Counted from the stretch's first letter, positions 8,689 through 13,355 are shown. The stretch is 64,000 nucleotides of DNA from Vicinamibacteria bacterium (GCA_963555995.3 OY821641.1:3424001-3488000); one strand, 5' to 3'. The notes: generated from the sequence alone by a model not told the origin. Made by a program: numbers and translations.

Positions 8689-9843
8689 TCAGCGGCCCAG
8701 CACCGCGGTCAGAGCGGCTGCCACTTCGTCCACCTGGGCCTCGGTGATCACGAGCGGGGGCAGCAGCCGGATCACGGTGGACCCGGCCGGCAGCGCCAGC
8801 ACCCCGTTCGCCATCAGCCGCTCCAGCGTGGGGCGGCATCGCTCCCGCAGCTCGATCCCGATCATCAGGCCCAACTGCCGCACGGCCCGCACCCGAGCGG
8901 GGGGCTGCAGGGAGAAGCGTTTGCGGAACCGGGCGCCGCGCCGCTCCGCGCGCTCGGCCAGCCGTTCGTCCTCCATGAACCGGATGGCGGCGAGCGCCGC
9001 CGCGCACGCCAGGGGGTTGCCCCCGAAGGTGGTGCCGTGCTTGCCGACGAGCGGCGGCAGCCGTTCGCCCGCGAGCACCGCGCCCATCGGCACCCCGCCG
9101 GCGATGGCCTTGGCCACGCACATGAGGTCCGGCTCGACCTCGTAGCGTTCGCAGGCGAACATCCGGCCGGTGCGGCAAAAACCCGTCTGCGATTCGTCCA
9201 GGATGAGCATGGCGCCCGCTTCGTCGCAGGCGGCGCGAACGGCCTGGAGATACTCCGGCTCGGCGGGCCGCACGCCGCCCTCCCCCTGCACCGGTTCCAG
9301 CAGCACCGCCGCCGTGTCCTCGCCGACCGCGGCGCGCAGCTTCCCGGCGTCGCCGAACGGCGCGAAGGAAAAGCCGGGGACCAGCGGCGCGAAGGGTTCG
9401 CGGTAGTCCTTCCTGAACGTCGCGCTGAGGGCGCCCATGGTGCGGCCGTGGAAGCCGCGCATCGCGGAGACGATCCCCGTGCGGCCGGTGGCGAGACGGG
9501 CGAACTTGAGGGCCGCTTCCACCGCTTCGGCTCCCGAGTTGCAGAGGAAGGCCCGGGTGAGCCCCCGCGGTGCGATGGAAACGAGCTTCTCGAGGAGCTC
9601 GGCCCGGCGGTCGTTGTAGAAGATGCCGGGGCAGGTCACCAGGGTCCGCGCCTGGTCGCTGATCGCCTGCGCCACCGCGGGATTGGCGTGCCCGACGCTC
9701 GCCACGCCGATCCCGCCCACGCAGTCGAGATAGCGGCGTCCCCGGTCGTCCCAAACCTCGGCGCCGCTGCCGCGCACCAGCGTCAGGTCCCGCTTGGGAT
9801 AGACCTCGAGCCCCCGGGTCCGCTCGACCTCCTGGAAGTTCAC
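8689..9843 (-). CDS. lysJ: [LysW]-aminoadipate semialdehyde / glutamate semialdehyde transaminase (class III PLP)
   Basis: [44 protein letters not shown]; lysW operon context. Confidence 0.88.
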
Positions 9844-10649
9844 TCGATCACCGTCCCCCGTCCCGCGAGCGCGTCCCGGAGGGGGTGCTCCCCGCGCCCG
9901 TCGGCGATCACCACCCGGGTGCCGCCCGTCGCGACCAGCCGCTTGAGGGCCAGCATCTTCCGCTTCATGCGTCCCGAGACCTGCGCTTCGCGCCGTTCCA
10001 CCTCGGCGCGGGACATCCGGGGGACGATCGAGGCGGGGTCGTCCGGGTCTTCCAGAAAACCGGGGGCTTCGATCAACTGGACGACCAGCTCGGCGCGGAG
10101 TGCGTCGTTGAGGACCGTCAGGATGTCGTCGTTCTCCGAATTGATGGCAGCGCCCTGCTCGTCGAGGATGGGGACCGTCAGGACCGGCGCCAGCCCGCGG
10201 TCAAGCAGGAGGCGCAGCAGCCCCGCATCCACCTCCGCCGGCTTGCCCGACAGGTCGCGCCGGATCAGGGTCTTGCCCCCCTCCCGGATGCGGATGCCGC
10301 GATTCCGGCGGCCCCGGATCAGGGCGCCGTCGAGGCCGGTGAGGCCGATGGCGTTCACCCCGCGCCGCTGGAACATCTCCACGATCCGCTTGTTCCTGAG
10401 GCCGGCGTAGGCCATGAGGATGAGGTCCACCGCCTCGGCGTCGGAGTACACGCTGTCGTAGCCGGAGACCGAGGTGAGCACCTGCTTCCGGATGCCGAGG
10501 CGCTCCCCCAGTTCGTCGCGCAGCGCGTTGGCGCCGTGGACGACCACGAACGGCTTCCCGATTCCCGCGAGATCGCCGGTGATCCCCTCCAGGTTGACCG
10601 ACGCGCCCCCGCCGATCTTGATCAGGAGCACGGTGTCACGCGGTGTCAC
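9840..10649 (-). CDS. lysZ: [LysW]-aminoadipate/glutamate kinase
   Basis: IKIGG, VVVHGAN, GLTGLDG, GRMKRK; start refined to GTG 10649. Confidence 0.88.
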   Translation of the reverse strand: MTPRDTVLLIKIGGGASVNLEGITGDLAGIGKPFVVVHGANALRDELGERLGIRKQVLTSVSGYDSVYSDAEAVDLILMAYAGLRNKRIVEMFQRRGVNAIGLTGLDGALIRGRRNRGIRIREGGKTLIRRDLSGKPAEVDAGLLRLLLDRGLAPVLTVPILDEQGAAINSENDDILTVLNDALRAELVVQLIEAPGFLEDPDDPASIVPRMSRAEVERREAQVSGRMKRKMLALKRLVATGGTRVVIADGRGEHPLRDALAGRGTVIE

Positions 10650-11304
10650 GTCCGGAGCCGAACGGGCTGATGGTCCCGTTCGGGACGGGCGTCCACCCGG
10701 CGGGGCCGGCCGGCGGCGGATACCTCTCCGAGCAGAGGACGCTCGCGCCGCCGACGGTGGCGCGGCGCATCTGGAAGTAGTCGGGGTCCTCGTTGAAGCG
10801 GCTCGCCACGGTGACGCGGAACGAGGCATCGGTGACGACGACGTTCATGGCCCGCAGGTAGCGGGTGCGTTTCTCGATCAGCGGGAGGCCCCGTTCGAGG
10901 GCGCGGCGCAGGTCGCCGCGGTCGAACCGCTTCACGAAGTTGAAGACCTTTTCGGCCCCGATCCGGCCGCGTTCCCGGATTCGCACCCCGCGGAGTTCGC
11001 CGTTGAAGAGGAACATCCGCTCCCCGTCGAAGAAGGGCATGTTGTTCGCCACCCGGATCCCTTCGTTGCGGAAGGCGCTCCGGGCGTGCGCGAGCAGGAG
11101 GCGGGTGCGGCCCCGGGGCCGGTGGCGGTCTTCCCAGATCGGGGTGATGTTGCGGTAGATCCGCCAGCGGCCCGCTTCGAGCCAGGCGCAGCCCCAGCCG
11201 TGTCCCTGGAACTCGCGGCTGTTCCTCGCGACCTCGGTGAACGCCTCCAGGTGTTCTCCCAGGTCGAACGGTTCGTCGCCGCGGACGCAGAGCAGCCGGC
11301 ACAT
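10636..11304 (-). CDS. Class II glutamine amidotransferase / Ntn hydrolase (EgtC/YafJ/Dug3-like)
   Basis: N-terminal M-C-RLL (Cys1 nucleophile), GHGWG, LAHARSA, NNMPF, FNGEL; no synthase domain. Confidence 0.85.
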   Translation of the reverse strand: MCRLLCVRGDEPFDLGEHLEAFTEVARNSREFQGHGWGCAWLEAGRWRIYRNITPIWEDRHRPRGRTRLLLAHARSAFRNEGIRVANNMPFFDGERMFLFNGELRGVRIRERGRIGAEKVFNFVKRFDRGDLRRALERGLPLIEKRTRYLRAMNVVVTDASFRVTVASRFNEDPDYFQMRRATVGGASVLCSERYPPPAGPAGWTPVPNGTISPFGSGRDTA

Positions 11305-11335
11305 GGGGGGATTCTGTCGCTGCGGGGACCGGTCG

Positions 11336-12361
11336 TCAGATGGGATGGAGACCCGCGAACTCGAGTCCCAGCGTCTCCTCGAACCCGCACGCCAGGTTGA
11401 ACGCGTGGACCGCCTGCCCCGCGGCGCCCTTCATCAGGTTGTCGAGGGCGCTCATCGCCACCACCCGCTTCGTGTCCGGGTCCCGTTCGAACCCCACGTC
11501 GCAGGTGTTCGTGCCCGCGAGGATCCCGGGTTCGGGATAGCGGTGAATTCCGCTCCGGCCCTTCACGATCCGCACGAAGGGCTCCCCGGCGTAGGCGTCG
11601 CGGTAGATCCGCCACAGCTCCCGGTCGTCGAGGCCGCGGTCCGCGAAGACGTGACAGGTGGCAAGCACCCCGCGCACCATCTCGATCGAGGTGGCGGAGA
11701 AGTGGAGGTCCTCCACGCCGAGCGCTGCCGCGATCTCCCCCAGATGACGGTGCCCGGTGGGCCTGAACGCCCGGGCGGCGCCGCTGCGTTCCGGGTGATG
11801 GCTCGCCGCGGTCGCCTGGTTGCCGGCTTCGCTGGAGCCGACCAGCACCTCGATGACCGCCGATTGGACCACTCCCGCGTCGCACAGCGGCTTCATGGCG
11901 AGAATGGCGGCCGTCGCGTTACAGCCGGCGCAGGCCACCAGATCCGCGTCGCGGAGCGCCTCCCGGTTCAACTCCGGGATTCCGTAGACGAAGCGGCCCA
12001 GGAGGTCCGGGCAGGGGTGCGGCCCGCCGTACCAGCGCTCGTAGGCGGCGGGGTCCCGCAGCCGGAAGTCGGCGCCCAGGTCCACGATCCGCCCGGCGAC
12101 CCGGCGGAAGTCATCCATCCGGCGGGCCGACTCGCCGTGGGGAAGACAGACGAAGAGCGCGTCGCAGCCGGAGAGCTCGTCCAGCGGGCGGAAGCGGAGC
12201 CGGGTGGCGCCGCGCAGGTTCGGGTGCGCGCCGTGGGCGAACTTCCCGGCCAGGCGCTCGGAGGTGATCTCGGCCACCTCGACCTCCGGATGGCCGAGCA
12301 GCAGGCGCAGCAGTTCGCCGCCCGCGTAGCCGGAGGCGCCGGCGATGGAGGCCCGGATCAT
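11336..12361 (-). CDS. lysY: [LysW]-aminoadipyl/glutamyl-phosphate reductase (ArgC family)
   Basis: [39 protein letters not shown]. Confidence 0.92.
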
Positions 12362-13194
12362 GGGTCCGCGGAAAGGAGGTAGGACACGATCCGTCCCGGG
12401 ATGTCAACGCCGGTGACCCCGATGCTGTTGCGGAACTCCATCGTGTAGTTGACCTCGTTGACGAGCAGCCCGTCAGCGGTCTCGAAGAGGTCCACGGCGA
12501 GGACGCCGCCGCCCACCGCCTCCGCGGCCCGGAGCGACAGCTCGGCGAGGTCGGCGGTCACCGGGCGGTTGGAAGTCGTCGCTCCCCGCGCGGTGTTCGT
12601 GATCCAGTGGTCCGAGGTCCGATAGACGGCGGCGATGCACTCGTCCCCGACCACGAAGCTGCGGATGTCCCGGCCGCCCTTCTCCACGTACTTCTGGGCG
12701 AAGAAGATGGAGTGGTGGTAGCTGCCGAGGATCGCCTTGTGCTCCAGCACCGTCTCCGCCGCCTGCCGGTCGTTGATCCGGGAGAGCAGCCGCCCCCAGG
12801 AGCCGACCGCCGGCTTCAGCACCACCGGGTAGCCGAGTTCCTCGATGGCTTCGAGGCTGGAGTCTTCGGTGAACGCAACCCGGGTTTCCGGTTGCGGCAC
12901 TCCGAACTCCGAGAGTGCGACCGCGGTCAGGATTTTGTCGCCGCACTTCCGCGAGACCTCGTAGCGGTTGACGCACCGGATGCCCATGCTCTCGAAGAGC
13001 CGCAGGGCGTGCATCGCGCGGGAGTGGTTGATGGAACGCTCCAGGATGACGTCCACCGCGGGCGGAGTCCGCAGGTCGAACACCAGCTGCCGGTCGTCGA
13101 GGAGGACCAGCTCGACTCCGGGGCGCCTCCGCAACTCCCGGATGAGGAGCTTTTCTTCCGGACGGATCAGCGAATGAAGGAACCCGACCCTCAT
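12358..13194 (-). CDS. lysX: LysW ligase LysX (RimK/ATP-grasp family)
   Basis: [34 protein letters not shown] overlaps the lysW stop (ATGA). Confidence 0.92.
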
Positions 13195-13355
13195 TCGCCC
13201 CAATCCTCTTCGGCGGCCGGAGCCTCACCCAGGGCGACCGGATCGAGCGCCAGGATCTCGAGTTCACTGCCGCATTCTGCGCACTCGAAGACTTCGCCCT
13301 CGACGGGGTCGTCGGAGATCTCGACGGCAGCGCCGCACAGCGGGCAATCGGTCAT
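13191..13355 (-). CDS. lysW: Amino-group carrier protein LysW (54 aa)
   Basis: Below the ORF-track cutoff; [54 protein letters not shown]: two CxxC and the C-terminal EDWGE signature. Confidence 0.97.

Follow-up and report, generated by a model that had tools for sequence, protein, structure and literature searches.

A stand-alone cysteine hydrolase in lys operons without lysK: a candidate release enzyme of the LysW pathway

How is the finished amino acid freed from its carrier protein in a LysW operon that has no lysK? To our knowledge, the M20 enzyme LysK is the only enzyme known to free the product from the amino-group carrier protein. The question is raised by a 64,000-nucleotide stretch of DNA from a Vicinamibacteria bacterium (GCA_963555995.3, OY821641.1:3424001-3488000), referred to below as the window. 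A sequence-only reading of this DNA had proposed an operon lysW-lysX-lysY-amidotransferase-lysZ-lysJ, and all six genes were found on the minus strand in that order (Table 1); as that reading also stated, no LysK-like frame is present in the window. The additional gene encodes a 222-amino-acid N-terminal nucleophile (Ntn) hydrolase, called here the Ntn protein. We consider it probable that this protein is a non-orthologous replacement for LysK, cutting finished lysine off LysW. The operon represents a real variant of the LysW pathway that is found widely, and the support for its candidate release enzyme is good.

The analysis of the genome (3.80 Mb in 2 contigs, 92.95% complete) revealed no LysK. 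The LysK model TIGR01902, whose cut-off was passed in four organisms having LysW systems, gave a best score of 80.4 against a cut-off of 163.1, and a custom profile made from 12 LysK sequences from the phylum of the window reached at most 79 bits. The M20 domain PF01546 had 20 matches in the genome; the best 10 of these were classified as amidohydrolase, ArgE/DapE, hydantoinase-type or unassigned, and none came near the LysK cut-offs. Neither profile search thus found a true lysK elsewhere in the genome. The Ntn protein itself matched neither PF01546 nor TIGR01902, and its structural model resembles Ntn folds instead.

Relatives of the Ntn protein are numerous: 2194 at 90% clustering and 321 at 50% clustering, with at least 562 matching stretches in a species-level genome set. 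Among the matches listed, the closest relatives (91-95% identity) carry the name Acidobacteria, and some members are named in databases as hypothetical or (predicted) glutamine amidotransferase. Gene neighbourhoods were analyzed in 97 loci, comprising 17 from the same phylum and the best 80 of the at least 562 stretches. The Ntn gene was accompanied by lysY in 91 of them, lysX in 89, lysW in 85, lysZ in 84 and lysJ in 83; lysK was present near it in none of the 97. Neighbouring genes were additionally clustered all against all in 34 loci. Three gene orders were observed, W-X-Y-N-Z-J, W-X-Y-Z-J-N and W-X-Y-N (N being the Ntn gene), as against W-X-Y-Z-J-K in LysK operons. In the second of these the Ntn gene stands directly after lysJ, that is, in the slot which lysK occupies. 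Since W-X-Y-N-Z-J recurs in 69 of 105 loci and relatives are so many, an assembly artefact or a chance reading frame was rejected.

A distant subgroup, 30-37% identical to the protein of the window, was analyzed in 79 metagenome loci drawn from the best 80 of 247 matches. A lys gene was found in 64 of the 79 (64 of the 65 having at least 600 bases upstream), and in all 64 lysJ lies directly upstream, which again places the Ntn gene where lysK would be. No lysK was found in any of the 79. Proteins that matched the family profile less well (E 1e-11 to 1e-31) were treated separately, as a sister group. Of its 17 loci, 15 yielded a protein, every one with the motif TDSE, and lys genes are absent within 1.5 kb in all 17. 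Ten wider sister loci are without lysW, lysX, lysY or lysZ; an aminotransferase is encoded near the gene in one of them, and aconitase-family proteins in five.

The distribution of the two enzymes was determined in a census of 627 genomes from three phyla, each searched for LysX, the Ntn protein and LysK; the genomes on which the phyla were centred (G000, G375 and G313) had been picked for carrying the Ntn gene. LysX scored over its cut-off in 67 genomes: 49 have the Ntn protein only, 17 LysK only, none both and one neither. The phylum of the window contributed 301 genomes, 32 of them with LysX (17 Ntn only and 15 LysK only). Among 145 genomes of the phylum of G375, LysX was found in 21, with the Ntn protein in 20 (one match being a 60-residue piece at a contig end), LysK in none and neither in one, G436, which has contig ends. 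The phylum of G313 gave 14 genomes with LysX out of 181, 12 with the Ntn protein only and two with LysK only. Thus, if the reading is correct, the Ntn protein is the commoner solution in two of the three phyla (20:0 and 12:2), the third standing at 17:15. The LysX cut-off excluded G580, G685, G688, G693, G104 and G399; G026 has the Ntn gene without LysX, and G222 has LysK without LysX, its region beginning inside the operon. As had been anticipated, the two proteins occur together in none of the 627 genomes, and LysK over its cut-off was absent from all of 80 further genomes chosen for the Ntn gene, which partly overlap the phylum samples.

Because the Ntn protein, in the genomes covered, is present where LysK is missing and never alongside it, we regard it as the likely releaser of lysine, by chemistry unlike that of LysK. 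LysK uses a metal-activated water, whereas a cysteine nucleophile is proposed for the Ntn protein. The two share the proposed reaction and substrate, the partner genes and, in many operons, the slot after lysJ. They differ in fold, which is unrelated, and in size (about 350 amino acids for LysK, a member of the ArgE/DapE family covered by TIGR01902 and NF003367, and about 215 for the Ntn protein), and were never found together in the genomes searched.

The AlphaFold2 model of the Ntn protein has a mean predicted local distance difference test (pLDDT) value of 95.1. Structure comparison identified EgtC (4zfl) as the closest solved fold, with Z 25.7 and a root-mean-square deviation of 1.9 over 204 aligned residues at 20% identity. 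Folds of the class II amidotransferase type (GlmS 1xff, PurF, AsnB and the stand-alone YafJ/PF13230 proteins 1te5 and 3mdn) followed at Z 18.7-22.8, the GlmS glutaminase domain 1xff giving Z 22.6. Foldseek likewise matched the Ntn sandwich fold, at E 3e-11. EgtC (4zfj, 4zfk, 4zfl) is likewise stand-alone and starts with Met-Cys; it hydrolyses a gamma-glutamyl amide, freeing the finished product. The Ntn protein differs from it in its lys-operon context, its basic docking surface and its proposed substrate, a protein-bound glutamate. An EgtC ortholog was rejected: TIGR03442, the sole NCBIfam match, scored 37.2 bits against a cut-off of 218.65, Pfam gave no match, and the neighbours are lys genes rather than ergothioneine genes. 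With the class II amidotransferases the protein shares the fold, the first cysteine, an Arg and the Asn-Gly motif; it departs from them in lacking a synthase domain and in reading IGAE or IGAQ in place of TDSE. The Ntn protein probably works like LysK, has a class II Ntn fold, and is neither LysK nor EgtC.

The frame has its own stop and begins Met-Cys-Arg, confirming the Met-Cys start and the absence of a synthase domain reported from the sequence. Met1, Cys2 and Arg3 are invariant in 84 of 84 aligned family members, as are R75, N101, G113 and G116; G102 is found in 82. The Asn-Gly motif and the Arg align to those of 3mdn and EgtC, and from GlmS we take Asn-Gly to be the oxyanion motif and R75 the carboxylate-binding Arg. 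Gly116, present in all 84 members, stands where 3mdn has the Asp of its TDSE motif, a residue kept in 15 of 15 sister proteins outside lys operons. Where the sister group has two His residues, the Ntn family has M/Q and F. The TDSE Asp presumably binds the free alpha-amino group of glutamine, as in GlmS structures (the literature, available in part, gave no confirmation of this); its loss fits the need of an enzyme acting on LysW, because there that amino group sits in a peptide bond. In the eight longer forms of the family that a weak search turned up, the Pfam domains are those of a kinase, a reductase or an aminotransferase, or unrelated ones; no synthase was among them. A 481-amino-acid record (P0390) has the full Ntn domain joined in frame to LysZ, possibly as a genuine fusion and possibly through a single-base error where the two meet.

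The protein is rich in arginine, as the sequence-only reading had noted: 35 of 222 residues (15.8%), compared with 9.4-10.9% in the four other enzymes of the operon. Its net charge is +12 and that of LysW is -16. When the Ntn protein and LysW of the window were co-folded, the pair scored 0.76 and the best of three controls 0.01. Of 157 solved complexes 116 attained this mark of 0.76, as did 2 of 215 mismatched pairs; these counts apply only roughly, since the alignment was one made for this analysis. The runs share at least 95% of contacts, with partner pLDDT of at least 88. In the predicted complex the LysW tail is located at the site of the catalytic Cys, LysW residues 45-54 contacting Ntn residues 1-2, 75, 77-79, 89, 100-110 and 115-120. 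The surest of these predicted contacts are those of LysW Trp52, with G116 among its partners. Over the predicted interface columns the mean net charge is +6.4 in the Ntn family and +0.9 in the sister group. Part of the co-fold result may stem from likeness, since LysW tails bound to other enzymes have already been solved. Overall, the replacement of LysK proposed from the sequence is supported: the search for lysK in the genome, residence in lys operons, anti-correlation with LysK and co-folding of the acidic LysW tail onto a basic surface that extends to the N-terminal Cys all came out as predicted.

The following mechanism can be proposed from these data. Removal of the first Met would make Cys2 the N-terminal nucleophile. 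The acidic tail of LysW, EEDWGE, would dock in the basic groove with Trp52 against L104, V107, G116, K119 and V120; R75 would hold the C-terminal alpha-carboxylate of LysW, and N101-G102 would form the oxyanion hole. Cys2 would then attack the gamma-amide of LysW Glu54 and lysine would depart, after which water would hydrolyse the acyl-enzyme and free LysW for reuse by LysX. An acyl-enzyme intermediate is the general mechanism of Ntn enzymes (PMC3249071, text in part). The change of Asp to Gly at position 116 would drop the residue that binds the alpha-amino group in the canonical enzymes and so make room for the Glu54 peptide bond.

The same chemistry would convert the Gln-terminated LysW of some operons to the working Glu form. 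The carrier ends in an EDWGE motif, and in a haloarchaeal LysW system the terminal Glu is essential, E54A being an auxotroph; E54Q is not among the variants in the available part of that paper (PMC10433800). Where the C-terminus of LysW could be read, it was Gln in 21 of 132 Ntn-operon loci and in none of 17 LysK-operon loci; it was unreadable in a further 65 and one, respectively. Judged by eye, the Gln-ended rows are scattered over some eight to ten positions of the LysX tree described below, many of them on open forks. Enzymes of this fold cleave gamma-amides such as the one that a terminal Gln presents, and Gln-ended carriers are for that reason in accord with a release enzyme without proving one.

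A number of observations weigh against the proposed replacement. Taken by itself, the excess of Gln ends falls short of significance (one-sided Fisher p = 0.064), and the LysW of the window itself has a terminal Glu. The co-fold controls included no TDSE-type relative among the three. One complete-genome locus, L101, has the Ntn gene without any lys gene within 10 kb. An M20 amidase of the genome (L002) exceeds an ArgE/DapE-family cut-off (TIGR01910, 263 against 217.6) and could perform the release step. At a looser LysX threshold (E <= 1e-50) the census gives 73 genomes, 50 with the Ntn protein, 18 with LysK, none with both and five with neither; the four added to the last class, G580, G685, G688 and G693, match LysX in part, at about 175 bits, and resemble in this the second, RimK-type match of G024. 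In a LysX tree (a quick version with 73 selected rows) the Ntn/LysK label requires 3 changes, against a shuffled mean of 13.9, strongly supported branches force only one, and a single clade spanning phyla takes in 53 of the 58 Ntn rows. The sampled genomes are accordingly not independent, as most Ntn operons belong to that clade, and the exclusion reflects few independent events combined with inheritance of whole operons. The pattern of distribution is therefore one of few swaps followed by the spread of whole operons. As to lysine, lysA and dapF of the diaminopimelate route are present in the genome (C1:1844017-1845207 and C1:2909803-2910582). No orthologs of homocitrate synthase or homoisocitrate dehydrogenase were found there, the best matches being LeuA, LeuB and isocitrate dehydrogenase, which leaves the source of aminoadipate unexplained.

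Lysine is nevertheless the likely product of the operon, given the LysX signature, the separate arg genes and a diaminopimelate route without dapB. Read from its translation, LysX of the window has the signature F/V/T/N-S, close to the F182/I192/T203/N258-S259 of the aminoadipate-specific Thermus enzyme (PMC12998189, text in part), and F/I-or-V/T/NS occurs in 78 of 89 LysX matches of Ntn loci. For arginine the genome has an argC-argD-argF-argB cluster of its own, separate from the operon, together with argG-argH; a search for ArgJ found none. Matches to the DHDPS family are weak and dapB was not found, so that the diaminopimelate route seems to be incomplete. Uptake, or synthesis by diverged enzymes, may account for the aminoadipate. 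A single frame at C1:1917878-1920148 (L177), which fuses the small- and large-subunit parts of an aconitase and is below every family cut-off, is possibly a homoaconitase. Aminoadipate-synthesis genes are found inside the Ntn operons of some relatives: in L054, a single-contig genome, the operon also holds homocitrate-synthase-like, homoaconitase and homoisocitrate-dehydrogenase-like genes.

The reading that survives best beside lysine release keeps the release step and changes the product here to ornithine or another amine. It is compatible with the proposed replacement as to the step, and we think it rather unlikely. Recognisable aminoadipate-synthesis genes are missing from the genome, and 7 of 20 loci in the phylum of G375 (L230, L231, L234, L235, L236, L238 and L247) have a second lysX of different signature after lysY, with argG close by in three; this suggests that in those operons one carrier pathway serves both lysine and ornithine. 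Against such a product in the window stand the aminoadipate-type LysX signatures just described, the separate arg genes and the gap at dapB, and the first two make an arginine role for this operon unlikely.

There is an outside chance that the Ntn protein plays the part of ArgJ in the carrier pathway, as a Cys acyl-transfer enzyme that releases lysine, activates Gln-ended carriers and is able to hand LysW to aminoadipate. If so, the LysW route would be a cycle needing LysX for priming only. The likeness to ArgJ, the ornithine acetyltransferase, is one of analogy only: in the sister arginine pathway it is a second, unrelated solution to deprotection, and it differs in that it acts on an acetyl group, which it transfers.

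Could a general M20 amidase of ArgE/DapE type, encoded elsewhere, release the lysine, leaving the Ntn protein an accessory role in repair of LysW (misloaded or dead-end adducts) or in deamidation of Gln-ended carriers? Candidates exist among the 20 PF01546 matches, one of them over ArgE/DapE-family cut-offs; LysK is itself an ArgE homologue of relaxed specificity (PMC12998189, text in part), and the 21 Gln-terminated carriers would provide a substrate. Yet an accessory enzyme would have no reason to shun LysK operons, and the two coexist in none of the 67 genomes with LysX. In most loci of the distant subgroup the Ntn gene follows lysJ and so takes the position of lysK, and 111 of 132 carriers are already Glu-ended. 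We judge this explanation improbable.

Less probable still is that the protein is mainly a transpeptidase, which once lysine has left passes the LysW acyl group from Cys to a new aminoadipate in an ArgJ-like manner and spares the ATP of LysX, which would only prime the system. ArgE and ArgJ provide a precedent for a hydrolase and a transferase at one step. Transfer is chemically open because Ntn enzymes pass through an acyl-enzyme intermediate; the resemblance of ArgJ to Ntn hydrolases is convergent (both PMC3249071, text in part). LysX, however, is kept in 89 of 97 loci and, in the two replicate phyla, in every genome with a full-length Ntn gene (20 of 20 and 12 of 12), the nearest solved folds are hydrolases, and no positive sign of an acceptor site was seen. 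Finally, a plain glutaminase or an EgtC-like amidase of small gamma-glutamyl compounds merely travelling with the operon, for example to supply glutamate or ammonia, has EgtC and GlmS glutaminase domains as closest structures and the database names of some members in its favour, and is very improbable given that the TDSE Asp is Gly throughout the family, an amidotransferase is not known to act at any step of the LysW pathway, the absence of LysK and its complementary distribution with the Ntn protein would stay unexplained, and the predicted complex puts the LysW tail in the site.

No description of an Ntn enzyme in place of LysK was found in the full-text literature, including the available parts of PMC9272926 and PMC11726168, most subscription papers being outside its coverage; to that extent the claim that the variant is undescribed holds. 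The main text of the GapMind 2026 preprint (10.1101/2024.10.14.618325, available in part) gives no alternative to LysK. For the LysWXZYJ-Hcs locus of Caldithrix abyssi no LysK is named in the available text and non-orthologous displacement was suspected (PMC5317091); no named Caldithrix abyssi protein is present among the named members of the Ntn family. The lysW of PMC5584792 (text in part) is a transporter and not the carrier.

If the replacement is real, the release of the carrier has a second, unrelated solution and a pathway hole is closed in many uncultured lineages, as the species-level matches indicate. Proteins at present annotated as hypothetical or as glutamine amidotransferase would gain a function, and LysW genes with a terminal Gln could be accounted for. 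One Asp-to-Gly change and a basic groove would have turned a glutaminase fold toward protein-bound glutamate.

Table 1. Genes of the lys operon in the window (positions counted from the first letter of the window; scores in bits).
Gene	Position	Strand	Product	Basis
lysW	13191..13355	minus	54-aa zinc-ribbon amino-group carrier protein, C-terminal EDWGE	PF21344 55.4 bits; TIGR01206 55 vs cut-off 53.2
lysX	12358..13194	minus	ATP-grasp ligase	TIGR02144 319.5 vs 275.6; signature F/V/T/N-S
lysY	11336..12361	minus	LysW-aminoadipyl-phosphate reductase, ArgC family	TIGR01850 364.5 vs 233.6; name lysY inferred from operon place
Ntn gene	10636..11304	minus	stand-alone Ntn cysteine hydrolase, class II glutamine-amidotransferase fold, 222 aa; proposed LysW-lysine release enzyme	
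lysZ	9840..10631	minus	[LysW]-aminoadipate kinase	NF010659 233.7 vs 223; alternative start GTG 10649
lysJ	8689..9843	minus	class III aminotransferase	NF042418 463.7 (below its cut-off 700); TIGR00707 428 vs 410

The genes of the operon are tightly packed. Four-base overlaps are present at three junctions, ATGA at lysW/lysX and lysX/lysY and GTGA at lysZ/lysJ, and 31 bases separate lysY from the Ntn gene, in agreement with the gap of about 30 bp read earlier. The overlap of the Ntn gene with lysZ that had been reported holds only for the upstream start: a 9-base direct repeat across the junction (10631-10649) creates two possible lysZ starts, and at the one preferred by the family model as first position, GTG 10631, there is a 4-base gap instead. 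For LysJ the best model has a narrow cut-off, which was not reached; that of the ArgD family was passed. Scanning the operon for promoters and terminators gave nothing exceeding shuffles. In one RNA run 0.06 of words matched, with contigs that span the operon at mostly <95% identity, which establishes neither transcription nor this strain.

Several loci deserve separate mention. In six from Gammaproteobacteria (L135, L138, L141, L143, L147 and L151) the Ntn gene lies in short W-X-(Y)-N clusters with no lysZ or lysJ within 10 kb, and LysW is Gln-terminated in five of the six. In L121 lysY is the only lys gene near the Ntn gene. Two copies of the distant-subgroup gene lie about 2.4 kb apart in L288, the first behind a fragment of a class III aminotransferase. 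In L065 (G026) a partial Ntn gene adjoins an integrase fragment and a MerT-type gene, distant from lys genes. In the sister group, TDSE-keeping PF13230 proteins of L250-L259 are encoded beside large secreted proteins with alpha-amylase, M14 carboxypeptidase and FlgD-Ig domains.

In the window itself, two minus-strand frames without a Pfam match (13693-14046 and 14084-14821) are located 5′ of lysW. The operon is flanked by genes that did not recur as neighbours in the loci examined: an AcrB-family transporter at 5313-8510 on the minus strand, 3′ of lysJ, and a TPR protein at 14809-16239 on the opposite strand, upstream.

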